From a virus (taxonomy: Duplodnaviria > Heunggongvirae > Uroviricota > Caudoviricetes): DNA of 11,051 bases. The position numbers and the translations under genes were made by a program. Within the stretch, counting starts at the first letter, position 1. Every line of letters starts with the position of its first letter. The stretch lies in IMG/VR virus record IMGVR_UViG_2671180296_000007, positions 1-11,051 of that record. One strand, written 5' to 3'. The notes under the pieces were generated by a model that had not been told where the DNA came from, made no database searches, and worked only from the letters and a program-made list of their open reading frames with translations. Of this stretch, positions 1-11,051 are shown piece after piece.

Positions 1-1242
1 ATGGCGAGAAAAACACCCCCATTAACCACAGTGCAGATCAAAGCAGCCAGACCAGCGCAAAAGGAGTACACCCTACAGGACGGCGGTGGGCTTTTTCTCC
101 TGGTAAAACCGTCCGGATCAAAACTCTGGCGATTTTCCTACTACCGACCATCGGACAAAAAAAGAATATTGCTGAGTTTTGGATCGCTTGAAGATGTTTC
201 CCTGGCTGATGCCAGAAAACGCCGTAGCGAGTACAGGACGTTAATCAGTGCCGGAACTGACCCGCAGGACCATGAGAAGAAAAAACGAGAGGCAGAGGCC
301 CGAAGACAAGGGAACACGTTCGAAAATGTGGCGGCGGCATGGTACCAGGTGAAAATCAGCCAGAATCTGGCCCCCAACACGATTAAAGACATCTGGCGTT
401 CGCTGGATAAATATGTATTCCCGTTCATCGGCAACACGCCAATAGATACCCTCACTGCCCGAAGGTTCGTTGAGGTGCTTACACCCATCAAGGAGCGCGG
501 CAACCTGGAAACACTCAAGCGGGTTTTACAGCGCGTTAATGAGGTAATGGATTACGCCGCCAACAGTGGGCTGATTGATGCCAATCCGGCTATGAATGTG
601 CGTAAGGCGTTCCCCTCCCCTGTAAAAAAACATATGCCAACAATCCGCCCCGAACAGTTGCCGGAGCTTATGCAGGCTTTATCCGTATCAGCAACAGAAC
701 GGCAGACCAGATTACTGATTGAATGGCAGCTACTGACTGTAACCCGTCCGGTTGAAGCATCGTCAGCACGCTGGGAAGAAATCGACATGGACGCGCAACA
801 ATGGACGATCCCCGCCGGACGCATGAAGATGCGGCGTGATCACGTTATCCCGCTTTGTAGTCAGGCTATGGCGGTACTGGAGGCCATGAAGCCAATCAGC
901 CACCACCGCGAGCACGTTTTCCCTAGCCTGAAAGACCCACGGCAGCCTATGAACAGCCAGACCGCCAACGCAGCATTGCGGCGAATGGGATTCGCTGGCG
1001 TGCTGGTGTCTCATGGATTACGCGCCATATTCAGCACAGCAGCGAACGAGGAAGGATTCGAGCCGGACGTAATCGAGGCCGCACTCGCACACGTGGACAC
1101 GAACGAGGTAAGGCGAGCATATAACCGAAGTAACTACCTGGAAAAGCGCGTGGTGCTTATGCGCTGGTGGGGGGAATTTGTAGAGGCCGCAGCAACCGGA
1201 GTGACCATAGCCAGTGGTAAAAGGGGTATCCGTGCCGTGTAA
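1..1242 (+). CDS. int: Tyrosine recombinase / phage integrase, P4-type
   Basis: Full ORF of 413 aa. The N-terminus (KEYTLQDGGGLFLLVKPSGSKLWRFSYY) is typical of the P4-integrase N-terminal domain, and the C-terminal half has the recombinase-like HGLRAIFST region and a tyrosine near the C-terminus (RRAYNRSNYLEKR). Recognised from family knowledge, not searched. Confidence 0.9.
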   Translation: MARKTPPLTTVQIKAARPAQKEYTLQDGGGLFLLVKPSGSKLWRFSYYRPSDKKRILLSFGSLEDVSLADARKRRSEYRTLISAGTDPQDHEKKKREAEARRQGNTFENVAAAWYQVKISQNLAPNTIKDIWRSLDKYVFPFIGNTPIDTLTARRFVEVLTPIKERGNLETLKRVLQRVNEVMDYAANSGLIDANPAMNVRKAFPSPVKKHMPTIRPEQLPELMQALSVSATERQTRLLIEWQLLTVTRPVEASSARWEEIDMDAQQWTIPAGRMKMRRDHVIPLCSQAMAVLEAMKPISHHREHVFPSLKDPRQPMNSQTANAALRRMGFAGVLVSHGLRAIFSTAANEEGFEPDVIEAALAHVDTNEVRRAYNRSNYLEKRVVLMRWWGEFVEAAATGVTIASGKRGIRAV

Positions 1243-1343
1243 CTGTACAAAAAACCAGTAAAAGCGATGCAAACCATGCTAAACCATCGTATAATCACCA
1301 TATACAGAGAGACCCGACTCTTGAAATTCAAGGAGTTATCCGA

Positions 1344-1586
1344 GTGTTTTTCAATGAAAAGGTATCCCCTGCCTATGGTGAAGGCCTTCAACTGGCCTTA
1401 ATGGCAAATCGTGAATTCTGGTCAACGTACGATCCGGAAGACAAATCAACTGCCCCCACAAAACACGAGGTAGTCAGTTTTTTGCGCTCGCGTGGCGCAT
1501 CGAAAAATCTGGCTGAAAGTATCGACAAGGTGCTGAGGCCCACCAGCCTTAAATGCGGTGGGCGACCTAAGAAGTGGAAACGGTAA
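1344..1586 (+). CDS. Hypothetical small protein (80 aa from GTG, or 61 aa from the ATG at 1401)
   Basis: ORF preceded by AGGAG (1331-1335) 8 nt before GTG 1344 and followed by a hairpin plus T-run. Basic C-terminal tail GGRPKKWKR. No family recognised. Confidence 0.35.
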   Translation: MFFNEKVSPAYGEGLQLALMANREFWSTYDPEDKSTAPTKHEVVSFLRSRGASKNLAESIDKVLRPTSLKCGGRPKKWKR

Positions 1587-1591
1587 TCACA

Positions 1592-1621
1592 ATAGCGGCC
1601 CCTTGCGGTCGCTATTTTTTT
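1592..1621 (+). terminator. Rho-independent terminator-like hairpin plus T-run
   Basis: Imperfect stem atagcggcc / ggtcgctat immediately followed by tttttttt, 6 nt after the stop of the 1344-1586 ORF. Confidence 0.4.
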
Positions 1622-1657
1622 GCAGAAAGAAAAGCGTAATCAATAAGATAAAAAACA

Positions 1658-1691
1658 GTGGGTACCGTTTTAAAACGGTGGGTACTGTTTT
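1658..1691. promoter_or_regulatory. Putative operator: perfect 16-bp palindrome within two direct 14-bp repeats
   Basis: ACCGTTTTAAAACGGT (1664-1679) is a perfect palindrome. It sits inside tandem copies GTGGGTACCGTTTT (1658-1671) and GTGGGTACTGTTTT (1678-1691), about 70 bp upstream of the alpA start. Confidence 0.4.
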
Positions 1692-1756
1692 TCCCGCCCT
1701 GCCCTGTTTTACCGTATTTATCACCGGAATACGCCGGATTAACGAGGTAAAACATA

Positions 1757-1963
1757 GTGGAAACAATCAGAAAAATTCTTACCCGTCAGGAAGTAAAAAA
1801 TATTCTGCGCATCAAGGCAGACAGTTCGCTACAGGACATGATCAACGCCGGAAAATTCCCGAAAGGCTTCAAAATCGGTCTGCGCCGTGTTGGCTGGTAT
1901 GAAGATGAAGTGCTGGCCTGGCTGAAAGAGCGCGAGGAAGAAGCGCGCGGAACGGCTGCGTAA
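1757..1963 (+). CDS. alpA: AlpA-family DNA-binding regulator (phage transcriptional regulator / excisionase-like)
   Basis: 68 aa with GTG start. Pattern LTRQEV..IL.I...S..DMINAGKFPKGFKIG.RRVGWYEDEVLAWL fits the AlpA signature. Position directly after int is the canonical P4/PICI arrangement. Confidence 0.8.
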   Translation: METIRKILTRQEVKNILRIKADSSLQDMINAGKFPKGFKIGLRRVGWYEDEVLAWLKEREEEARGTAA

Positions 1964-2110
1964 TGGTGTGAGGCGTAACGCGATGAACATAACAAAAAGC
2001 GCCCCGTTGCCGGAGCGCCCTTGCGAACAATTAACCTGCTGCGAAAAAAATGGATCAGTGCAGTGGAATTATATCAACCGTGTGACGAAGCGCCACAATT
2101 GCCGGATAAC

Positions 2111-2142
2111 AGGCAAAACAAAGGCCACCCGCTACGGTGGCC
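2111..2142 (-). terminator. Putative rho-independent terminator for the minus-strand small gene
   Basis: Stem ggccacc (2123-2129) / ggtggcc (2136-2142) with a 6-nt loop. On the minus strand it is followed by TTTGTTTTGCCT. Confidence 0.4.
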
Positions 2143-2245
2143 CCTCGACACAAGCTACACGTTATCCCCAACGCATGAGCATAGCCAACAATGCCACATT
2201 TGCGGCTGGTGGGCAAAGCGTAACCGGAAAAAAATTCCGGTGGAG

Positions 2246-2425
2246 CTACTCCTGCTCTTTGGCCTTGCGGCGCTGGCGGCGTTTGATCTCGCCGCGCATG
2301 GCTGCACTTATAAACTGCCCTGTACTTTCGCCTTCTTCTTTCACGTTTTCCATGCCTTCAATAATTTCATGGGCAATACGTGCAGTTACAGATTGTGATT
2401 TTGCATTCTTTGGACCTGTTGCCAT
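2246..2425 (-). CDS. Small basic-tailed protein (59 aa), putative transcriptional regulator of the divergent switch
   Basis: Start set at the internal ATG (2425) because a perfect AAGGAG lies 5 nt upstream on the minus strand. Sequence MATGPKNAKSQSVTARIAHEIIEG...KRRQRRKAKEQE. Divergent from the Icd-like operon with shared repeated operators. Function inferred from context only. Confidence 0.5.
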   Translation of the reverse strand: MATGPKNAKSQSVTARIAHEIIEGMENVKEEGESTGQFISAAMRGEIKRRQRRKAKEQE

Positions 2426-2445
2426 GTCTAACTCCTTATGTTTTT

Positions 2446-2540
2446 GGTGTAAGACAATATACACGAAAAAAAATTATTTTGAAGGGTTGACGTGTAAGAC
2501 ACTATTATTTTACATTGTGTCTTACACCTTGTTGATACAA
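2446..2540. promoter_or_regulatory. Divergent promoter/operator region with three copies of TGTAAGACAC
   Basis: Direct copies at 2447-2456 and 2492-2502; inverted copy at 2517-2527, giving a perfect 11-bp inverted repeat with 14-bp spacer. Candidate -35 TTGACG (2487-2492) and -10 TACATT (2511-2516) for the + operon. Candidate minus-strand -35 TTCAAA / -10 TATATT overlap the operator copy at 2447-2456. Confidence 0.45.
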
Positions 2541-2624
2541 GGTGCAGAAACGACGAAACCCGGCAGTGCGCTAACACTAACCGGGCTTCTAACCACCAAC
2601 GATAACGAGAGTATCGAGGTAGCT

Positions 2625-3239
2625 ATGTTAAATCATACCATACACCCGCAAGGGCGGGACTCGCACAACCTGAATAAATATATCTGGCGTTTTATCGCCC
2701 TGAGCACAGCACAACCGCGCGTGATTACCATTGAGGCCACCAGCGAACAGGAAGCACGCCAGAAAAACCAGTTGATCGCCATTGCCAGCCAGGGCTATGA
2801 TTTATCCGCACCAGCAAAATCTGGTGCCGGGATTGGCGTCCTGGTATTTAACGAAGCGCACAACACGCGCCCTGCGTGTTTTTTTGTGCCGGATAGTCAC
2901 ACCTTATCAATGGTGGGCTGTATGGGGGCGGAGCAATCCGCGCCGGGTTCTTCGTTAACCGGTTACGCCAACCCTGTACAGTCTACCGCCAGCGAAATTG
3001 GCGTTTCCTGCGGTGGGTTTATTAAACCTAACGAAGAGGCTGCCAACATGGCTACTATCCCTGCCCTCGTACATTCTCAAACTGCCTTTATCTGGCGCTT
3101 TATCATCTTTGGCGCGTCAGAATCCCAAATCATCCACGTAACCGCCTGGACGGAACGCGAAGCGCGTAGTCGTTGCCCGTCCGGTTGTGTTGCTGTATTC
3201 GCCGCCCGTATTCGTCAGGAGGTGCGCCATGTGCAATAA
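2625..3239 (+). CDS. Icd-like (host cell division inhibitor-like) protein with two copies of the Icd motif
   Basis: The track ORF 1968-3239 is trimmed to ATG 2625 (GAGG 6 nt upstream), because the upstream part overlaps the minus-strand gene and the promoter region. Two copies of the motif: YIWRFIALSTAQPRVITIEATSEQEAR (N-terminal) and FIWRFIIFGASESQIIHVTAWTEREAR (C-terminal). Family assignment is from memory of the Icd-like signature. Confidence 0.5.
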   Translation: MLNHTIHPQGRDSHNLNKYIWRFIALSTAQPRVITIEATSEQEARQKNQLIAIASQGYDLSAPAKSGAGIGVLVFNEAHNTRPACFFVPDSHTLSMVGCMGAEQSAPGSSLTGYANPVQSTASEIGVSCGGFIKPNEEAANMATIPALVHSQTAFIWRFIIFGASESQIIHVTAWTEREARSRCPSGCVAVFAARIRQEVRHVQ

Positions 3240-3699
3240 CACCCGTCCGGACGCAGCCGCCGAAGCTATCAGAACGCTGATGCACGCGCTGATTAATATT
3301 TCTGTTATCGCAGACATGGCGCATAAACACGCCACCAGCGAAACAGAATATGCCGGGGCTTTCGTTCCTCACTCACTGGCTGTTATGCAATTTAGTGCTG
3401 ATATGGCACTGAATGAGGCTAAAGCCATCCTGATTGCTGATTGTGAAAATGGGGGGGTTATGCGTGATGATCGTTTTAATGCCCTGAAACAGGAATTTTC
3501 CGGCGTATCTGATGATGCGAGTGATGCGCTTTCGTCAATATCCGAACTGATAAGAGCGGCCTTTTTCTTACTTGGCACGAAAGAAAATAAAACAACGGGG
3601 TTTGATGTACTAAATATCACCGCTGATTATGCGGAATATGTGGCAGAAGTCGATTTAAGAAAAATCCCGAATTGTCGCGGCATTAATAACGCTTCTTGA
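3229..3699 (+). CDS. Hypothetical protein (156 aa)
   Basis: ATG 3229 preceded by AGGAGG (3217-3222) with a 6-nt spacer; overlaps the end of the upstream gene by 11 nt, suggesting one operon. Acidic, alanine-rich. No family recognised. Confidence 0.6.
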   Translation: MCNNTRPDAAAEAIRTLMHALINISVIADMAHKHATSETEYAGAFVPHSLAVMQFSADMALNEAKAILIADCENGGVMRDDRFNALKQEFSGVSDDASDALSSISELIRAAFFLLGTKENKTTGFDVLNITADYAEYVAEVDLRKIPNCRGINNAS

Positions 3700-3777
3700 G
3701 CCTGTAATAAATGAATCGCAGGAAATAGAAACATTGCACGACAGATATAAAGAACAGCACACCGGAGAATAAAAATA

Positions 3778-4077
3778 ATGAAACTTAAATATTCTGGCTT
3801 AACTGCCAGTGGCAACACTCACCCTAAATTTACGCGCGGTGATATTTACCGCGACCAGTACGGCGGCACGGTAATGATTAAGGGCGTGGCGGGACGGTGC
3901 GTAACTTACCGCCGTGAAGGTTACGAATATGATTGCGTGATGCCTGTTTATCAGTTCCGGCGTGATTTTTCTCTGGTACAGGCAGCGCCCCGCAGTAAAC
4001 CAACCAGCAGGGAGAAAGCACGCGCCAATATTCAGAAGATGAAAACCATGATTAAAGGATTCAGGGGTAAAAAATGA
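3778..4077 (+). CDS. Hypothetical small protein (99 aa), translationally coupled to the primase
   Basis: GGAG 3762-3765 upstream of ATG 3778. The stop overlaps the primase start in an ATGA motif (4074-4077). Confidence 0.6.
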   Translation: MKLKYSGLTASGNTHPKFTRGDIYRDQYGGTVMIKGVAGRCVTYRREGYEYDCVMPVYQFRRDFSLVQAAPRSKPTSREKARANIQKMKTMIKGFRGKK

Positions 4078-5828
4078 AACTGGCACCGAACGTAAAACAG
4101 CAGTCACGCGGCATAAAACACAAAGAAACAGAAGTCATTATTTTTGCGGGTAGTGATGCCTGGTCACACGCGAAACAATGGCAGGAACATGATGCGCGTA
4201 TGGCCGGAGATAATGAGCCTCCTGTGTGGCTTGGGGAGCAGCAGCTATCCGAACTGGATAATCTGCAAATTGTGCCGGAAGGCCGAAAATCAGCACGCAT
4301 ATACAGGGCCGGATATCTTGCGCCAGTAATGATAAAGGCGATTGGCCAGAAGCTGGCGGCGGCAGGCGTACAGGATGCAAATTTTTACCCTGATGGTATG
4401 CACGGTCAGAAGGTGGAGAACTGGAGCGAATATCTGGCCCGTGAGCGCCAGAATCTTTCTGATGGTCTGGTCATTGAGCTTCCGGTAATGCAAAAGGCGC
4501 AACTTTCGCAGATGGCGGACAGTGAGCGCGCACAGATGCTTGCTGGTCGATTTGATGGCGTTTGTGTGCATCCGGAAAGTGAAATCGTTCACGTATGGCG
4601 CGGCGGGGTATGGTGTCCGGTCAGCACAATGGAACTTAGCCGCGAAATGGTGGCGATCTATTCAGAGCACAGGGCCACTTTCAGCAAGCGCGTAATCAAT
4701 AACGCCGTGGAAGCGTTAAAAGTTATTGCCGAACCAATGGGCGAGCCGTCCGGCGATTTGTTGCCGTTCGCCAATGGTGCGCTTGACCTGAAAACGGGGG
4801 AATTTTCCCCGCACACGCCGGAGAACTGGATCACCACGCACAACGGCATTGAGTACACGCCACCAGCACCTGGGGAGAACATCCGCGATAACGCGCCAAA
4901 CTTTCATAAATGGCTTGAGCACGCAGCCGGAAAAGACCCGCGCAAGATGATGCGTATATGTGCCGCGCTGTACATGATTATGGCGAACCGGTACGACTGG
5001 CAGATGTTTATTGAGGCCACCGGAGACGGCGGGAGCGGTAAAAGTACATTCACGCACATAGCCAGCCTTCTGGCAGGGAAACAGAACACGGTGAGCGCGG
5101 AGATGACATCGCTTGATGATGCTGGTGGACGTGCGCAGGTTGTCGGGAGTCGTCTTATCGTCCTGGCTGACCAGCCGAAATATACAGGCGAAGGAACGGG
5201 CATCAAGAAAATCACGGGCGGCGACCCCGTGGAAATAAACCCGAAATATGAGAAGCGTTTTACGGCGGTAATCAGGGCGGTGGTGCTGGCTACCAACAAT
5301 AACCCGATGATATTCACCGAACGGGCCGGAGGTGTGTCACGTCGTCGCGTAATTTTCCGTTTCGACAATATCGTCAGTGAGGCCGAAAAAGACAGGGAGC
5401 TACCGGAAAAGATTGCGGCTGAAATCCCTGTCATTATCCGCCGATTGCTGGCGAACTTTACCGACCCTGAGAAGGCACGGGCTTTACTACTGGAACAGCG
5501 TGACGGTGATGAAGCACTGGCAATAAAGCAACAGACGGATCCGGTTATTGAGTTTTGCCAGTTCCTGAATTTTCTGGAGGAAGCGCGCGGCCTGATGATG
5601 GGTGGCGGTGGTGATTCAGTGAAGTACACGACCAGGAACAGCCTTTATCGCGTCTATCTGGCGTTTATGGCGTACGCAGGCAGGAGCAAACCGCTAAACG
5701 TAAATGACTTTGGCAAGGCTATGAAGCCAGCCGCGAAAGTTTACGGACATGAATATATTACGCGGAAAGTTAAGGGAGTAACGCAGACTAACGCAATAAC
5801 AACAGACGAGTGCGACGCGTTTTTATAA
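4074..5828 (+). CDS. DNA primase/helicase, P4-alpha C-terminal type (D5_N-like domain plus SF3 P-loop NTPase)
   Basis: 584 aa. Walker A GDGGSGKST (about 5018-5046), Walker B-like LIVLADQP, downstream NNNP motif. Overall resemblance to phage/plasmid primase P4-family C-terminal domain proteins (PICI pri-rep type). Confidence 0.85.
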   Translation: MKLAPNVKQQSRGIKHKETEVIIFAGSDAWSHAKQWQEHDARMAGDNEPPVWLGEQQLSELDNLQIVPEGRKSARIYRAGYLAPVMIKAIGQKLAAAGVQDANFYPDGMHGQKVENWSEYLARERQNLSDGLVIELPVMQKAQLSQMADSERAQMLAGRFDGVCVHPESEIVHVWRGGVWCPVSTMELSREMVAIYSEHRATFSKRVINNAVEALKVIAEPMGEPSGDLLPFANGALDLKTGEFSPHTPENWITTHNGIEYTPPAPGENIRDNAPNFHKWLEHAAGKDPRKMMRICAALYMIMANRYDWQMFIEATGDGGSGKSTFTHIASLLAGKQNTVSAEMTSLDDAGGRAQVVGSRLIVLADQPKYTGEGTGIKKITGGDPVEINPKYEKRFTAVIRAVVLATNNNPMIFTERAGGVSRRRVIFRFDNIVSEAEKDRELPEKIAAEIPVIIRRLLANFTDPEKARALLLEQRDGDEALAIKQQTDPVIEFCQFLNFLEEARGLMMGGGGDSVKYTTRNSLYRVYLAFMAYAGRSKPLNVNDFGKAMKPAAKVYGHEYITRKVKGVTQTNAITTDECDAFL

Positions 5829-5839
5829 TTTTTTGTAAT

Positions 5840-6070
5840 TGCTGTCTACCCTGTCTACCTGAGTAAAGAAAAATACATTTAATTCAGTGCATTAAGTTAT
5901 GTAGATAGCCTTTTTTTACTATCTACCCACTATCTACCCTCTCTACCTGATTTTACCTGAATCAGACAGGGAGGTAGACACGGGGTAGATAGTGGATAAA
6001 AGCACTCTACCCCGCTGAAAGCCGCGCCATTACTGGCATGAGGGCCACTAAGGTAGATAAGGTAGACAAG
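5840..6070. repeat. Iteron array / putative origin of replication
   Basis: Hexamer core TCTACC on + at 5845, 5854, 5922, 5933, 5942 and 6006. Its complement GGTAGA at 5973, 5984, 6052 and 6061. Arms form an imperfect inverted repeat (ccactatctacc 5927-5938 versus ggtagatagtgg 5984-5995). AT-rich stretch 5872-5920 and a DnaA-box-like TTATCCACT (complement of 5991-5999). Located immediately downstream of the primase gene. Confidence 0.6.
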
Positions 6071-6116
6071 GGGAGGCACAACTCAAAACTTTTTAAACGA
6101 GGGGGTAAAAATAAAT

Positions 6117-6395
6117 ATGCACACTTCAGGGAAATTTAATAAATCACTCAAAAAACGCAGAGACAGAACAGAACCGAAATATCGCGCGTTAGACATGACA
6201 GAGCACGCTTTAAAGGTGGCAATCAGAACGATAGACCGCCACGCGGGGGAAGGATACGCGAAAGCACATCCCGACCTGATAAGCGCATTCATGACCACGA
6301 CGGCGGCAAATTTTGCCACGCTGACAGAGCGGGAGATTGCCGAAGCGGAACAGGTAACAACAATCAACGTTAAAACCGGAGAGGTGGAATCATGA
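6117..6395 (+). CDS. Hypothetical protein (92 aa)
   Basis: GAGGGGG upstream of ATG 6117. Stop overlaps the ssb start (ATGA at 6392-6395). No family recognised. Confidence 0.55.
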   Translation: MHTSGKFNKSLKKRRDRTEPKYRALDMTEHALKVAIRTIDRHAGEGYAKAHPDLISAFMTTTAANFATLTEREIAEAEQVTTINVKTGEVES

Positions 6396-6814
6396 CAGCA
6401 CAGATAGCCGCTTACGGGCGGCTGGTGGACGACCCGCAGGTAAAACAGACCAGCAAGGGCACACCGATGACGCTGGCGCGTATGGCGGTCCCCCTTCCGT
6501 GCAGCCAGGCAGATGACGGAACGGCGACGATGTGGTTATCCGTCCTGGCATTTGGCAGACAGGCCGAAGCACTGGAAAGGCACCGCAAGGGTGAACTCCT
6601 GAGCGTGGCGGGTAACATGCAGATCAGCCAGTGGACTGGGCAGAACGGAGAAACGCGGCAGGGCTGGCAGGTTATCGCAGACAGTGTAATCAGTGCGCGA
6701 ACGGCGCGACTGGGCGGCAAAAAAGGTCAACAGGGCCAGGCTACTGACGCGCTGAACAGGGCAAAACAACAGGCGGGGAATGATGATCCGTACGGGGATA
6801 ACATACCGTTTTAA
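6392..6814 (+). CDS. ssb: Single-stranded DNA-binding protein (SSB-like OB fold)
   Basis: 140 aa. Pattern GRLVDDPQVKQT..G...LARMAV...W..VLAFGRQAE......KGELLSVAG.....W....G..R follows the SSB OB-fold signature. Gly/Gln-rich linker and C-terminal DDPYGDNIPF, resembling the acidic ...DDDIPF tip of E. coli SSB. Confidence 0.8.
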   Translation: MTAQIAAYGRLVDDPQVKQTSKGTPMTLARMAVPLPCSQADDGTATMWLSVLAFGRQAEALERHRKGELLSVAGNMQISQWTGQNGETRQGWQVIADSVISARTARLGGKKGQQGQATDALNRAKQQAGNDDPYGDNIPF

Positions 6815-6829
6815 GCGACGAGTGACAGA

Positions 6830-6852
6830 AGCCGGAGCAATCCGGCTTTTTT
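6830..6852 (+). terminator. Rho-independent terminator
   Basis: Stem agccgga / tccggct with a GCAA loop followed by TTTTTT, 16 nt after the ssb stop. Confidence 0.6.
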
Positions 6853-6900
6853 ACGGGTCCTCCTAGCGGGGTGGGCCTGAACACGGGGCGGGAGGCGCGG
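6853..6900 (+). other. Degenerate cos-like sequence (cosQ-like ACGGGTCCT plus mutated cosN)
   Basis: acgggtcctcctagcggggtgggcctgaacacggggcgggaggcgcgg parallels the intact cos at 9294-9343 (acgggtcctttccggcatatggacctgttacggggcggcgacctcgcgcg). The 12-nt cohesive-end core is altered (GGGCGGGAGGCG versus GGGCGGCGACCT). Confidence 0.4.
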
Positions 6901-7032
6901 AAAAAAGCGCATTTTTGTGATTTTATCGTCATCATCATCATGAGCGTAATTTATTGTTTTTAATTGTTTTGATGCAAAAAAGATGATGTTTGTGGTTAAT
7001 TTTTGTTCGACATCTTTGCAGGCAGATAAAAA

Positions 7033-7069
7033 AGCCCGATAAGGTCAGAGGTGGCTTATCGGGCTTTTG
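7033..7069. terminator. Bidirectional terminator-like hairpin
   Basis: Stem agcccgataag (7033-7043) / cttatcgggct (7055-7065) flanked by an A-run upstream and a T-run downstream. Confidence 0.5.
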
Positions 7070-7100
7070 CATATGAGGCTTTTTGGTGCACTGACACACA

Positions 7101-7198
7101 TGATCGGGATCATCATTTCATAATTTGCAACACAACTCAACATCATTGCATAAAATGCAATCATGATTATAATCATAACTGGATGAACATCCAGTTAT
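7101..7198 (+). promoter_or_regulatory. Near-consensus sigma70-like promoter with nested palindromic operators upstream of the capsid operon
   Basis: -35 TTGCAT (7146-7151), 16-bp spacer, -10 TATAAT (7168-7173). Palindromes: TGATCggGATCA (7101-7112), TTGCATaaaATGCAA (7146-7160), ATGATTATAATCAT (7163-7176), and a perfect 11-2-11 ATAACTGGATGaaCATCCAGTTAT (7175-7198) over the predicted transcription start. Confidence 0.5.
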
Positions 7199-7229
7199 GA
7201 TTTTTTAAGTCAAAGAGGAATTTCTTACT

Positions 7230-7436
7230 ATGGCTGAAGAGAAAAAAGGCGGTGTTTCGGTGTACATAAGCCCCGAAATCGTGGAGGTGCTCAAGCAGCG
7301 CCACAAAAAAAACTATGAGGCTGGCGTGGCGGCTGGACTGGATCCGCTGATGACGCCGGAGCCGTCGATAGGTTCACTTGTACGCTCTTATTTACTTGCG
7401 GCGCTTGGGATGCATAAAAATTATGGGGGTGAATAA
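7230..7436 (+). CDS. Hypothetical small protein (68 aa), first gene of the capsid operon
   Basis: AAGAGGAA (7213-7220) upstream of ATG 7230. Stop overlaps the capsid gene start (TAATG). No family recognised. Confidence 0.55.
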   Translation: MAEEKKGGVSVYISPEIVEVLKQRHKKNYEAGVAAGLDPLMTPEPSIGSLVRSYLLAALGMHKNYGGE

Positions 7437-8491
7437 TGGCAGGCAAAGCAACGGCACTTAACACTAACCAGCTTTTCGCGTACCTGAATCGCGGGGATAT
7501 TGCGGAATTTAAATTCAGTCCGCTGTTTACCACGCTGTTTTTCCCGAACGTGGCGACATTCAACACCCAAAGCATCATGCTGGACACCCTGGACATTGAA
7601 GAGGTTACGATGTCGGCGTTTTGTTCGCCTATGGTGGGTAGTCAGGTCCAGCGCGATAAAGGGTACGAAACCAGCACGATTAAACCTGGATACATGAAGC
7701 CGAAGCACGAAATCGATCCAACGAAAACCATCATGCGTATGGCTGGAGAAGATCCGGCACAGCTTAATGACCCAACCTATCGCCGTATGCGCCTGATTAC
7801 TGGCAACATGCGCCGCCAGATAAACGCGATTAAAGCGCGCGTGGAATGGCTGGCGGTGAATGCGGTAACGACCGGAAAAAACATCATTGAGGGCGAAGGC
7901 ATAGAACGCTATGAAATCGACTGGAAGATACCGGAAAAAAACATCATAGAGCAGGCCAAAGGCCGTAAATGGTCCGAGCAGGACAAAGAAACCCACGATC
8001 CAATCTATGATATCGAGCTTTATGCGGATCAAGCAGGTTGCCCCTCCAACGTCATGATCATGGGCGCTGAGGTATGGCGAACGTTACGCAGCTTTAAAAA
8101 ATTCCGCGAACTGTACGATCTTTCCCGTGGTTCAGAGTCCTCCGCAGAGCTGGCCTGTAAAAACCTGGGCGAAGTGGTGAGCTTTAAAGGATATCTGGGC
8201 GATATTGCCCTTATCGTCTATTCCGGCAAATACACTGACAGCGACGGCACCGAAAAATATTTCCTTGAGCCTGATTTGCTGGTCCTGGGCAACACCAACA
8301 ATAAAGGGCTGGTGGCCTATGGTGCGATTATGGATCAGGAAGCGGTCAGAACGGGCGCAACGCAAAACATGTTTTACCCGAAAAACTGGATTGAGGACGG
8401 CGATCCGGCGATTGAGTACGTGCAGACGCACAGCGCACCGCAGCCGGTTCCGGCAGATATTCGCAAATTTGTTACCGTCAAAATTGGTTAA
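7436..8491 (+). CDS. Major capsid protein, lambda gpE family
   Basis: 351 aa. Matches to lambda E recalled from memory: FKFSPLFTTLFF (lambda FKFDPLFLRLFF), PGYMKPKHEI (PGYVKPKHEV), DPTYRRMR (DPAYRRRR), SFKGYLGDIALIVYSGKY (SYKGMYGDVAIVVYSGQY), YPKNW, and full-length collinearity. GGGGG RBS 6 nt upstream. Confidence 0.9.
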   Translation: MAGKATALNTNQLFAYLNRGDIAEFKFSPLFTTLFFPNVATFNTQSIMLDTLDIEEVTMSAFCSPMVGSQVQRDKGYETSTIKPGYMKPKHEIDPTKTIMRMAGEDPAQLNDPTYRRMRLITGNMRRQINAIKARVEWLAVNAVTTGKNIIEGEGIERYEIDWKIPEKNIIEQAKGRKWSEQDKETHDPIYDIELYADQAGCPSNVMIMGAEVWRTLRSFKKFRELYDLSRGSESSAELACKNLGEVVSFKGYLGDIALIVYSGKYTDSDGTEKYFLEPDLLVLGNTNNKGLVAYGAIMDQEAVRTGATQNMFYPKNWIEDGDPAIEYVQTHSAPQPVPADIRKFVTVKIG

Positions 8492-8502
8492 CGGGGGATT
8501 CT

Positions 8503-8838
8503 ATGGACACTCCATACATTGAGTTATTTGCAGGCAGTCAGCAGGTTGCCACGACGCTGGTACATTTTGCCGCTGATGCTGGCGTTATTCAGGAATTTAC
8601 CCCGCTGATGCTGGCGGACAATGGCGAATTTAAGCCGTGGGATGGTCAGGAATCTGGCAAGGCTGTTTATCTGACGGCGTATCCCGTGGACACGTCAACG
8701 CAGAAATCAGCACAGTGTTACAAGACGGGGATATTCAATATTGCCGCCGTTAACTGGCCTGAGAGCGTCGACACCGACGCGAAAAAATGTGCCGCCTTTG
8801 CGGGTTCTGGTGTATCTGTTCAGCCGCTGGCGCGATAA
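8503..8838 (+). CDS. Head decoration protein, lambda gpD family
   Basis: 111 aa. TPLMLADNGEFKPWDG and C-terminal YKTGIFNIAAVNWPESVDTDAKKCAAFAGSGVSV parallel lambda D (TPLMLDTSSRKLVAWDG ... [35 protein letters not shown]). Confidence 0.8.
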   Translation: MDTPYIELFAGSQQVATTLVHFAADAGVIQEFTPLMLADNGEFKPWDGQESGKAVYLTAYPVDTSTQKSAQCYKTGIFNIAAVNWPESVDTDAKKCAAFAGSGVSVQPLAR

Positions 8839-8851
8839 GCAGGGGGGAACG

Positions 8852-9265
8852 ATGGCAACGAATGAAAGTATCATGGCGCTACCGCTGGCGAGTAAATTTA
8901 AAGCTGAAGCGCGGGCAATGGCTGACAGATGTCTATCAACCTACGAAGCTATATATCAACTTAACAAACTGGAAGAACAGGACAAGCCGCGCGCTGATGC
9001 GATTATGTCGCTTCATGAATCTGACGACTATCAGCCGCTGTTACGTGCAATGGCAAACGTGCCTTGTATTGATGTTGATACGGCTAAAAACATCCTGAAC
9101 ATGACCATAGAACAGGAACGCCAGAAGGTTGCACCAGAGCTTACCGCAGCCTTTGAAAACTTTATGGACATGCACAGCCCACAAGCCGTATCAGCTGGCA
9201 TGGCATACGATGGCAGAAACCCGGGCGATGACGGCGACATTGATCGCATACTGAAAACCATCTGA
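8852..9265 (+). CDS. Hypothetical acidic protein (137 aa), last gene before cos
   Basis: The track ORF 8741-9265 is trimmed to ATG 8852, preceded by AGGGGGG. It is followed by a terminator and then cos. No family recognised. Confidence 0.55.
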   Translation: MATNESIMALPLASKFKAEARAMADRCLSTYEAIYQLNKLEEQDKPRADAIMSLHESDDYQPLLRAMANVPCIDVDTAKNILNMTIEQERQKVAPELTAAFENFMDMHSPQAVSAGMAYDGRNPGDDGDIDRILKTI

Positions 9266-9271
9266 GACAAG

Positions 9272-9293
9272 GCCGGAGAAATCCGGCTTTTTT
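9272..9293 (+). terminator. Rho-independent terminator
   Basis: Stem gccgga / tccggc with a GAAA loop followed by TTTTTT. Nearly identical to the terminator at 6830-6852. Confidence 0.6.
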
Positions 9294-9500
9294 GCGGGTC
9301 CTTTCCGGCATATGGACCTGTTACGGGGCGGCGACCTCGCGCGTTTTCACTATTTATGAAAATTTTTCGGGATCCATGTCCGGTTTCTCTGCAAGTTAAC
9401 CATATGAAAAATATAAAAACATGCTTTCCATGAACCGGACATGCGCAAAAAAACAGACACTAAAACCGGACATCGTACCCGTTAACCGGAAGTGTGCAAA
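9294..9500 (+). other. Lambda-type cos site, forward orientation (cosQ-like, cosN, candidate cosB)
   Basis: cosQ-like GGGTCCTTTCCGG (9296-9308). GTTACG then the 12-nt cohesive-end sequence GGGCGGCGACCT (9326-9337). Downstream TTTTCACTATTTATGAAAATTTTTCGG closely matches the lambda left end (CGCGGGTTTTCGCTATTTATGAAAATTTTCCGG). Candidate terminase-binding repeats AACCGGACAT at 9433, 9464 and 9484, with an inverted copy at 9374-9384. Confidence 0.8.
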
Positions 9501-9699
9501 AATCACACGCATTGCTGCGCGTGATTAACAATTTATCGGCTTTACTGTTCTGTATAGGCTGGGTGGCGTCATGCCGTAGCCGTTCTCCGTGCCAGCATGG
9601 AATAATCCGTAGTTACAGAGCGGTAAAGTTAAAAATCACTTTCTGTTACGCCATCAAATACGCGATACAACAACCATGTGTTTTTACAAAACCATTTGA

Positions 9700-9898
9700 T
9701 ATCATTGAATTTTTTCACATTAATGACATCAAAATACATCGTAAGGTTGTTGTATTTATTTTATTTTATTTTTACCTTACTTATCAATTAGATATACCAA
9801 ACAATTAAACAACAACCACCCCATCAAAAAATCTCATAAATAGCGAAAAACCGCGAGGTCGCCGCCCCGTAACGGGCCATAATTCCTGGAAGGACCCG
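9700..9898 (-). other. Second lambda-type cos site, inverted orientation (cosQ-like, cosN, different candidate cosB)
   Basis: On the minus strand: cgggtccttccagg ... gttacgGGGCGGCGACCTcgcggtttttcgctatttatga. The cosN core is the complement of 9856-9873. The inward-facing flank carries GGTTGTTGT-type repeats (minus-strand reading), not AACCGGACAT. Confidence 0.7.
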
Positions 9899-9931
9899 AC
9901 GACACCAGACTATCAGAACGATGGGGGCACA

Positions 9932-10213
9932 ATGACAGAAGCCGAACTACTGCGATTAATCCGTCGCGTTGCCGGAATCAGCCAGCAGGCTGACGAACAG
10001 GCCACGCAGCCGGACAGCGTGACCGCAGAAAATTATGTTCGTGTGGTTGCTGAGGTGATGCACCGTGATGGTATCCAGCTTAATGATGCGGATATGCGCG
10101 ACATACGGATCCGCGTTCTTGAAATGCTGGCCTACCGTCGCCGGATACAGACGTACAGGGAAAAAGCCAAAATAACGTACCAGTGGAAGAAGCCGGAGCG
10201 GTTACGGCGGTAA
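9932..10213 (+). CDS. Hypothetical protein (93 aa)
   Basis: GGGGG 5 nt upstream of ATG 9932. First ORF downstream of the cos region. No family recognised. Confidence 0.55.
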   Translation: MTEAELLRLIRRVAGISQQADEQATQPDSVTAENYVRVVAEVMHRDGIQLNDADMRDIRIRVLEMLAYRRRIQTYREKAKITYQWKKPERLRR

Positions 10214-10233
10214 CTTGCTGAAGTTAAAGCATA

Positions 10234-10332
10234 ATGCAAATTTGCACTCTGGCCTAACCCGTTAATATTTCAGCAAAGTGCAAATTTGCGTTCTGTAGCT
10301 GGTGGCTGGCAGAATGTAAATTTACATTCTGG
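10234..10332. repeat. Three tandem about 19-bp repeats, each containing a 12-bp palindrome
   Basis: aTGCAAATTTGCActctgg (10234-10252), gTGCAAATTTGCgttctg (10279-10296), aTGTAAATTTACAttctgg (10314-10332). They lie in a convergent intergenic region between the stops of the flanking genes. Confidence 0.6.
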
Positions 10333-10336
10333 TGAT

Positions 10337-10636
10337 TTAATCATCTGATTTACCCAGCCCGTACCGGATTACCGTACAGTGAGCGCCATCGCTACCGATA
10401 CGCACATCAAAGCGGGGTTCGCGCACTTTCACGCGGTACAGGATCCCATCATTTACCATAGCGTTTAACGTTCGTCGGGTTGCCTCTATGTGATATCGCT
10501 GATATTCGGAACCATAGAGCAGCACTGTCACACCACGAACATCAAAAGGCGGATCTCCGGCCTCCACCCGCACCCAATCGCGATATTCAGGTTTGTAAAG
10601 TTCAAGAATCTGTTTTTTGTGCCTGGTCATTCTCAT
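10337..10636 (-). CDS. Hypothetical protein (99 aa)
   Basis: The track ORF is trimmed to ATG 10636 (MRMTRHKK...), which has AAGGAA 7 nt upstream on the minus strand. The longer N-terminal extension is hydrophobic and low-complexity and lacks an RBS. No family recognised. Confidence 0.5.
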   Translation of the reverse strand: MRMTRHKKQILELYKPEYRDWVRVEAGDPPFDVRGVTVLLYGSEYQRYHIEATRRTLNAMVNDGILYRVKVREPRFDVRIGSDGAHCTVIRYGLGKSDD

Positions 10637-10742
10637 GTGTGATTCCTTATTGTGGGACAGTACTGTCATACAATAAGCTATGAGGGAAATTATCAAAAGA
10701 ACGGAAACCAACCATTCAGATTTAACAGGTATCAATGGGATT

Positions 10743-11051
10743 ATGCTTATGGTGCATGATGACAAAGCGGAAGAACTGGAAGCGAAAGGTTTATGGCGAC
10801 GGGCGGCTAATCGCTGGGGTGAGTTACTGAAACAGGCGGCAAGTGATGAAGCGCGTCAGTATGTAACGGAACGACGAACGGCATGTATCCGGAAGGCAAC
10901 CATAACCCGGGAACCGGAAAGAGACCTGATTTGTGCCATAAGAACCGCCGCCACAAAAACACTAACGGACATGGGGATCGACCTGAAAAAAGAAGATCCA
11001 CTGCGGGGCATTCAGCACGGACATACAAAGCGGGATAAACGCAGGAAGTAA
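10743..11051 (+). CDS. PerC-family transcriptional regulator-like protein
   Basis: N-terminal AEELEAKGLWRRAANRWGELL recalls the conserved PerC/Pch-family motif, from memory and not searched. Start is uncertain (10680, 10743 or 10749); 10743 is chosen to leave room for a divergent promoter. The perfect palindrome GACAGTACTGTC (10656-10667) lies in the intergenic region. Confidence 0.45.
   Translation: MLMVHDDKAEELEAKGLWRRAANRWGELLKQAASDEARQYVTERRTACIRKATITREPERDLICAIRTAATKTLTDMGIDLKKEDPLRGIQHGHTKRDKRRK

Follow-up and report, generated by a model that had tools for sequence, protein, structure and literature searches.

The DNA analyzed here is an 11,051-nucleotide stretch of the virus record IMGVR_UViG_2671180296_000007 of the IMG/VR database (positions 1 to 11,051; henceforth the window), whose genes are those of a phage satellite, a phage-inducible chromosomal island (PICI) related to EcCICFT073 of Escherichia coli. 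Open reading frames (ORFs) of the window were compared with the Pfam, PHROG and NCBIfam families, and RNA genes were searched with Rfam. From left to right, the window carries genes for a P4-type tyrosine integrase, an AlpA-family regulator, a primase-helicase followed by an iteron origin, a single-stranded DNA-binding protein (SSB) and capsid and decoration proteins of the lambda E and D families, as well as two lambda-type cos sites (Table 1). Family searches and motif counts thus recovered every element listed in a first-pass annotation of this DNA. The absence of lysis, tail and terminase genes that it had also reported was borne out: neither these functions nor a portal gave a Pfam, PHROG or NCBIfam match in the window, and a reverse tblastn search with Nu1, A, W, B, C, Nu3, D, E, FI, FII, Z and U of lambda and PhiR12 detected D and E only.

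The window is an exact match to part of the 698-kb contig LFZI01000002.1 (GCA_001264195.1; L072 coordinates 5928-16978) and runs from the start codon of int to the stop codon of perC. The island as a whole, delimited by comparison with E. coli K-12, is 11,815 bp long and reaches about 208 bp beyond the window on the left and 556 bp on the right. It is preceded in the source contig by radD, rplY, yejK, yejL, yejM and tRNA-Pro and followed by yejO, narP and an IS110-family transposase gene, and the same site is empty and uninterrupted in K-12 (yejM / yejO, tRNA-Pro proL). The insertion point is the 3' end of tRNA-Pro (proL). Attachment (att) repeats, which the first-pass annotation had proposed to locate by comparison with an empty site, were found in the parts of the island outside the window. 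The island starts directly after the tRNA 3' end, which forms attL (CTCTCGTGCCGACCA), 208 bp upstream of int, and attR (CTCTCGTGCGACCA; L072 17521-17534) is a partial tRNA copy with one base missing. The corresponding tRNA fragment of a related island in strain MFDS1022581 lies at L001 19276-19290, and a damaged attR tRNA fragment has been described as typical of PICIs (PMC10111431). Repeats containing GTTATAC are clustered inside both island ends and are putative arm-type integrase binding sites. A tRNA gene scan of the window found none within it.

Because the insertion is discrete and the site is empty in K-12, the element is a discrete island and not a prophage fragment. With its size, its specific att site and its direct repeats it conforms to a Gram-negative PICI of about 10-20 kb. 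The first-pass annotation had favored a satellite over a degraded prophage on gene order and content, and would have given up this view had the flanks contained a full-length lambdoid prophage; core genes, yejM/tRNA-Pro on one side and yejO/narP on the other, lie there instead, and the satellite reading is upheld by these chromosomal flanks of LFZI01000002.1 together with the K-12 empty site.

The model Gram-negative cos PICI is EcCICFT073 (Fillol-Salom et al. 2018, 2019), which encodes a capsid protein (c1499) and a decoration protein (c1500) and has two functional cosN, in cos1 and cos2 (PMC6092414, PMC6739421). Compared with this island (taken from the CFT073 chromosome as L004), identity amounts to 98.1% for the primase, 96.6% for the capsid protein, 97.3% for the decoration protein, 91.9% for p1999, 84.9% for p1561 and 72% for SSB. 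Gene order is shared as well: int, alpA, ylcI, an icd-like gene, a DUF4222 gene, pri, ori, ssb, a 68-aa gene, the capsid and decoration genes, p1999, cos1, a cassette, an inverted cos2 and p1561. Both islands have two inverted cosN sites and a PerC-family gene. In the window, int stands at the left end and is followed by alpA and mostly rightward genes, only two small genes being on the minus strand. Directly after the pri-rep gene, two sets of iterons flank an AT-rich spacer, in agreement with the ori layout of E. coli PICIs (PMC6092414, Fig. 2). The SatelliteFinder PICI model has five core components, one of them a capsid gene, and forbids tail and holin genes and the portal and connector genes of capsid-forming PICIs (cf-PICIs) (PMC10085698). 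Judging from the text of that paper, the five seem to comprise int, alpA, pri-rep, capsid and terS; a capsid homolog of c1499 is present in the window, and the forbidden tail, holin, portal and head-tail connector genes are absent from it. By our own reading of the scheme, the island, which has int, alpA, pri-rep and capsid but lacks terS, would fall into PICI Type B.

Assignment of the island to the EcCICFT073 family is secure, and the window is very probably the int-to-perC body of an 11,815-bp PICI of this family at proL tRNA-Pro of an Escherichia genome. The first-pass annotation had held that lambda E/D genes combined with dual cos match no known satellite family; this was mistaken, as the combination is the published EcCICFT073 architecture, with proteins 85-98% identical.

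As packaging determinants the window contains two cos sites, no TerS gene and 22 codons of rppA. The lambda cosN 12-mer GGGCGGCGACCT occurs in exact form twice, once on each strand (Table 1), both times inside 73-nt inverted arms, and none of 200 shuffled sequences had as many matches. The rightward site, cos1, shares 94.4% identity across 179 bp with the cos located directly upstream of Nu1 in PhiR12_1, _2, _4 and _5. Moreover, the stretch comprising cos1 and its cosB (9295-9561) is the reverse complement of the cos2 region of EcCICFT073, at 94.4% identity. In EcCICFT073 itself, cos2 (L004 8074-8339) is nearly identical to the cos upstream of Nu1 in PhiR12 lambdoid phages; the original papers assigned the cosB of this site to no phage. 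A literature search on the PhiR12 phages found no relevant paper.

For the leftward site, cos2, comparison of the inner flank with the GenBank phage set gave no match beyond cosN plus ~60-85 bp. When IMG/VR was scanned, a long degenerate pattern of this flank gave no match and a shorter pattern detected the motif in 60 contigs. At least 40 of these have it ~46 bp past cosN and ~185 bp ahead of a block of Nu1-A-B head genes. Overall, cos2 is ~95% identical over ~200 bp to the cos of these lambdoid contigs and diverges where the phage Nu1 leader starts. Between the two groups of phages with these cos types, the Nu1 proteins share 71% identity; their identity to lambda Nu1 is 36%. Since the cosB regions resemble those of two lambdoid groups at ~94-95% identity, both cos sites are, judged from sequence, complete phage-type sites of two different terminase specificity groups.

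In EcCICFT073 the cassette between the cos sites encodes RppA (c1503), which binds helper TerS and redirects it to the island cosB (PMC6739421). The remnant in the window corresponds to residues 123-144 of this protein, and our RppA query was verified by its match to RppC in PDB (6hlk, E 5e-31). Searches by tblastn with RppA and with the TerS of the Nissle 1917 island revealed no second Rpp or TerS gene in the window. An ORF at 9494-9808 in the cassette was rejected as coding, its frame being different from that of the rppA remnant, its sequence of low complexity and the ORF unannotated in the related island L006. We likewise rejected a simple whole-cassette inversion of the EcCICFT073 arrangement, because the rppA remnant keeps its plus orientation, so that an additional recombination or deletion is needed.

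Cassettes that retain RppA were compared for EcCICFT073 and the island L007. The cos upstream of rppA, with its leader, is identical in the two (133/133 bases), and the cos2-side cosB differs, being of the PhiR12 type in one and of the second type in the other. An identical cos upstream of rppA fits the published role of cos1 as the Rpp-dependent site, and the variation on the other side suggests that cos2 may be a variable slot that mimics the helper. The cassette without Rpp is present at full length and 96-98% identity in nine other complete E. coli genomes, with ~90% coverage in two more, and in eight IMG/VR island contigs. At least one of its carriers, the island L006 between cspD and clpS, has a different integrase and a DUF927-type primase. 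The packaging module is modular and exchangeable: the enclosing inverted cos arms are the same in every case, and the cassette within them contains Rpp, a Nu1-like TerS or neither.

The orientation of the cassette was compared in eight IMG/VR islands with the same flanking genes. A 604-bp segment (window 9295-9898) has the window orientation in four (L016, L027, L045 and L070) and is inverted in the other four (L013, L015, L022 and L029), at 96-97% identity; with L006, which agrees with the window, the count is four inverted against five. At sites that distinguish the two arms, the outer, cosQ-side flanks are fixed, and exchange affects the whole sequence inward of a point 5 nt past cosN. This places the breakpoints in a 22-bp identical core, GTTACGGGGCGGCGACCTCGCG, which contains cosN. 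This pattern fits a flip of the segment by recombination between the inverted arms. Alternatively, terminase might produce the flip by cutting both cosN, the identical 5'-GGGCGGCGACCT overhangs then being able to re-anneal either way. By analogy with lambda, a translocating terminase would presumably fail to recognize an inverted second cos as a place to terminate, and this would account for the inverted, not direct, arrangement of the pair. Neither EcCICFT073 paper uses the word 'inverted' in its main text (PMC6092414, PMC6739421).

EcCICFT073 is mobilized by lambda, phi80 and a resident CFT073 prophage and packaged as phage-sized DNA, and AlpA activation, the functions of int and pri-ori, cos-dependent transfer and interference have all been established for it (PMC6092414). 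Its AlpA activates the island cycle and is itself switched on by helper phages (PMC6092414). By homology, a lambdoid helper phage would switch on alpA in the present island and AlpA would activate the rightward operon. Int would excise and circularize the island, Pri-Rep with SSB would replicate it from the iteron origin into concatemers, helper terminase would cut these at cos and package the DNA into particles made by the helper, and Int would reinsert the island at proL of a new host. Packaging would occur by direct cos mimicry of two helper specificities and not by Rpp-mediated redirection of TerS. We infer such an Rpp-independent route from the two phage-type cos sites. The fuller proposal is that the two inverted cos form a dual-specificity module, by which two kinds of helper could package the island without Rpp, inversion would block termination at the other cos, and the 0.5-kb segment would flip with breakpoints in the 22-bp core. 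We put it forward tentatively, at somewhat less than even chances. If true, cos2 of EcCICFT073 would be reinterpreted as a phage cos of the PhiR12 type. Phage-type cos2 sites suggest candidate helpers and a testable reason for having two cos.

Several points weigh against our reading. The rppA remnant means that the cassette arose by deletion or recombination, and deletion of rppA lowered EcCICFT073 transfer, RppA being needed for efficient transfer by lambda and phi80 (PMC6739421), so that an island without rppA could be defective. Decay does occur in the lineage, given that the capsid and phrog_2512 genes are frameshifted in the closest relative (L001, MFDS1022581). In at least one carrier genome, CEA601S, the cassette query matched one place only, and no resident phage with a matching cos was seen. 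Induction, helper identity and transfer are, finally, ascribed to the island by homology with EcCICFT073. On these grounds the element might be a defective PICI whose packaging was crippled by the loss of rppA and which is now inherited mainly vertically. The reduction of rppA to 22 codons, the frameshifts in relatives and the narrow distribution of the island agree with this: at least 80% of the window was covered in only two of the 5,426 complete E. coli genomes compared by megablast, with partial matches in 2,442. We nonetheless consider it unlikely, though a serious contender. Every other gene of the window is intact, the same Rpp-less cassette occurs in islands with different integrases, primases and chromosomal sites, both cosB are ~94-95% identical to cos regions of live phages, and plasmids with PICI cos sites were still transferred without RppA (PMC6739421).

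The lambdoid origin of the E, D and Nu3-like genes and of the lambda-type cosN would also be expected if the window were a lambdoid prophage in decay, or a rearranged piece from inside one, in which E, D and cos have been retained. We give this scarcely any credence: the insertion is a discrete 11.8-kb element that has att repeats of its own at a tRNA and is bordered by core genes at either end, it brings its own P4-type integrase and a primase-iteron replicon, and the same organization recurs at several chromosomal sites. Lambdoid genes are limited to E, D and a Nu3-like fragment, with no lambdoid regulatory, replication, lysis, terminase or tail genes within the locus or beside it. The capsid protein, 43.6% identical to lambda E, reaches ~47% identity at most with its best phage match among 50,697 phage records, and its gene is under purifying selection. 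The ratios of nonsynonymous to synonymous substitution rates (dN/dS) against five relatives are 0.08-0.14 for the capsid gene, 0.07-0.13 for the decoration gene and 0.06-0.08 for the primase gene. The coat and decoration genes are thus under strong purifying selection, comparable to that on the primase. A coat protein, a decoration protein and a scaffold-like fragment, all under such selection, are in turn what might be expected of a cf-PICI, which builds small capsids itself and relies on its helper for tails only. Portal, protease, adaptor/connector and TerL (plus TerS/HNH) are listed as cf-PICI-specific (PMC10085698), and no portal, prohead protease, head-tail adaptor or connector, TerL or TerS was detected in the window. 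The DNA of EcCICFT073, an island with a 97% identical capsid protein, is packaged at phage size, and deletion of c1499 or c1500 in that island did not relieve interference (PMC6092414); a cf-PICI is accordingly very improbable. The capsid module is conserved like the primase, although the published knockouts show no role for capsid or decoration protein with lambda. A P4-like satellite, finally, would account for the P4-type integrase, AlpA, the P4/D5-type primase, the cos sites and the C4/CI-type antisense RNA upstream of the replication genes. Yet int, alpA and primase alone do not separate P4-like elements from PICIs (PMC10085698), and P4 and E. coli PICIs have been argued to have evolved independently (PMC6092414). 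Pfam, PHROG and NCBIfam searches gave no psu, delta, sid or epsilon homolog for any ORF, cosN and cosB are of the lambda type and the E and D genes belong to lambda families, so that this explanation, too, can be all but discounted. We retain the view that the window is the body of an EcCICFT073-family PICI.

Table 1. Coordinates of the island and of the features identified in the window (window positions unless marked L072)
Feature	Position	Strand	Basis or remarks
Complete island in source contig, 11,815 bp	L072 5720-17534		Comparison with E. coli K-12
P4-type tyrosine integrase, 413 aa	1-1242	+	Pfam Arm-DNA-bind_3, Phage_int_M, Phage_integrase
Small hypothetical gene between int and alpA	1401-1586	+	Hypothetical in relatives; no family match (Pfam, PHROG, PADLOC, NCBIfam)
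AlpA-family regulator, 68 aa	1757-1963	+	PF05930, E 4.5e-8
YlcI/YnfO-family small protein	2246-2464	-	NCBIfam NF041551, E 2.2e-18; phrog_949
5' part of Icd-like gene, broken by 429-bp segment	2625-2765	+	NCBIfam phage_ICD_like, E 4.1e-10
429-bp segment	2766-3194	+	Rfam
isrK / a1b1 element	2795-2884		Rfam: isrK 80 bits; c4-a1b1 42.9 bits
C4 antisense RNA	2906-2993		Rfam, 73.4 bits
Second Icd-like gene, start supplied by 429-bp segment	3048-3239	+	ICD-like family
phrog_2512 hypothetical protein, downstream of icd-like gene	3229-3699	+	PHROG, E 1.7e-70
DUF4222 protein, overlapping primase start	3778-4077	+	PF13973, E 2e-23
Primase-helicase Pri-Rep, 584 aa	4074-5828	+	D5_N, DUF5906, Pox_D5
Iteron origin	5842-6069		Eight exact YTVTCTACC copies vs 0.23 expected by chance
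phrog_1231 hypothetical protein, overlapping ssb start	6117-6395	+	PHROG, E 1.7e-51
SSB	6392-6814	+	PF00436, E 4.9e-15
phrog_3255 hypothetical protein, 68 aa, first gene of capsid module	7230-7436	+	PHROG, E 8.5e-46
Major capsid protein, lambda E family, 351 aa	7436-8491	+	PF03864, E 2.7e-52
Head decoration protein, lambda D family, 111 aa	8503-8838	+	PF02924, E 2.1e-18
p1999, 137 aa	8852-9265	+	phrog_1999; phrog_53 positions 493-567 of 583, E 2.8e-8
cos1: cosN (9326-9337, +), then cosB with three CCGGACAT repeats, rightward	9326-9473	+	Exact cosN
rppA remnant, last 22 codons	9558-9623	+	tblastn, EcCICFT073 RppA residues 123-144, 72.7% identity
cos2: cosN (9856-9867, -), then cosB with three GGTTGTTGT repeats, leftward	9640-9867	-	Exact cosN
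p1561, 93-aa hypothetical protein, conserved right of cos2	9932-10213	+	phrog_1561, E 8.3e-55
Hypothetical gene, 98 aa	10337-10633	-	Hypothetical in GB089; no match in Pfam, PHROG, PADLOC, NCBIfam
PerC-family regulator, accessory gene	10749-11051	+	PF06069, E 7.7e-23

The capsid module keeps a coat, decoration and scaffold-like set without portal or protease. Four island copies of 11.8 kb each amount to ~47 kb, which falls within the range of the helper genomes (46-54 kb). The gene p1999, last in the module, matched residues 382-493 of PhiR12 gpC by blastp (27% identity, E 7e-8) and, weakly, residues 125-199 of lambda Nu3; its product resembles the C-terminal, Nu3/scaffold part of lambdoid gpC and is probably related to it. 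Some RefSeq records call it a 'phage head-tail connector protein', a label not supported here. The phrog_3255 protein, which has the same size as lambda W, was considered as a W homolog and rejected for lack of significant similarity. Sequence searches of PDB with p1999, p1561 and the TerS-like protein of Nissle gave nothing useful. Two 31-nt elements, each a hairpin with a T-run (GCCGGAG.AATCCGGCTTTTTT; 6831-6861 and 9272-9302), are 94% identical to each other and close the ssb module and the capsid module, respectively; they look like duplicated terminators. In a promoter and terminator scan, promoters did not exceed the shuffled expectation.

In the left part of the window, the integrase is 100% identical to that of the proL island in strain MFDS1022581. 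A palindrome of 21+21 nt (AAAAACAGTGGGTACCGTTTT / AAAACGGTGGGTACTGTTTTT) at 1651-1692 precedes alpA by ~65 bp and may be a site at which the AlpA promoter is regulated. The open frame of 423 codons at 1968-3239 is unusually long and almost certainly no gene; it was rejected, as it runs antisense through ylcI and across two RNA genes and two Icd-like segments. The phrog_2512 gene, intact in the window, is frameshifted in the relatives L001 (10821-11292) and L011.

Between the two Icd-like parts lies a 429-bp segment with isrK and C4 RNA elements. Identity to the MFDS1022581 island ends at 2765 and restarts at 3195, and the segment is missing from L001, L002 (Nissle), L004 (EcCICFT073) and L006. 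Overall, 224 E. coli genomes were found to have it, one of them in a further proL island, and it is common in E. coli islands other than the nearest relatives. The segment is positioned upstream of the operon that leads to the primase, in an arrangement that we take to resemble the P1 c4-icd-ant module and the P4 CI RNA immunity system.

At the right end, two 41-nt direct repeats (10211-10295), each with the palindrome TGCAAATTTGC, occupy the interval from the p1561 gene to the 98-aa gene on the minus strand; they are possible operators. The 98-aa gene, disrupted in MFDS1022581, may be an accessory gene. PerC-like genes have been reported as common PICI accessory genes (PMC11773190). Among ten small window proteins PADLOC detected no defense-system match, and NCBIfam recognized only the YlcI and Icd-like families among the window proteins.

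Among other satellites, P4 shares with the island a P4-type integrase, an AlpA/Vis-like regulator, a primase-helicase, use of a helper cos and, putatively, C4/CI-type RNA immunity. It differs in its psu-delta-sid operon and P2-type cos, whereas the island has lambda-type cos, a presumed lambdoid helper and coat and decoration genes. The cf-PICIs (Alqurainy et al., bioRxiv 10.1101/2022.09.08.507074) likewise have int, alpA, a primase and a satellite-encoded capsid protein, but they encode portal, protease, head-tail connectors, terminase and small capsids of their own, and those genes are absent from the window. SaPIbov5 and SaPIbov4 carry helper cos, SaPIbov5 with the capsid homolog Ccm and SaPIbov4 with two putative cos (PMC6092414). 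These islands, in contrast, come from a Gram-positive lineage in which an Stl repressor is present and transcription is divergent, and Ccm gives small capsids, which were not seen for EcCICFT073. A 36.7-kb IMG/VR contig (L042) has PICI-type genes for a p1561 homolog, a Nu1-like TerS and a capsid protein that shares 56% identity with that of the window. They are separated by ~7 kb from lambdoid portal, terminase and cos, and the contig may represent a PICI embedded in a helper.

Closer to the island are the proL islands of Nissle 1917, MFDS1022581, GB089 and STEC316, which share its att site, integrase (95.6-100% identity where measured) and overall order. They differ in that the Nissle 1917 island has a Nu1-like TerS gene between the cos sites, roughly half of rppA is retained in those of MFDS1022581 and GB089, and that of STEC316, which lacks the E/D module and has a primase of the DUF927 type, contains the C4 segment. 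In MFDS1022581, the closest relative among complete genomes, the capsid gene is frameshifted (L001 15028-16081), whereas it is intact in the window. A capsid gene is present in 21 of the 29 reference Gram-negative PICIs (PMC10111431).

Set against EcCICFT073, the island differs in integrase and att site, located at proL tRNA-Pro here and next to phoQ there. While rppA is intact in EcCICFT073, only its 22-codon remnant is left in the window; the CCGGACAT cosB is found at cos2 in EcCICFT073 and at cos1 in the window, where cos2, unlike that of EcCICFT073, has a second phage-type cosB. Furthermore, perC follows ssb in EcCICFT073 and stands at the right end here, and the 429-bp isrK/C4 segment is particular to the window island of the two. 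The overall architecture is consequently not new, the island being a member of a satellite family that has been experimentally characterized and that SatelliteFinder already detects.

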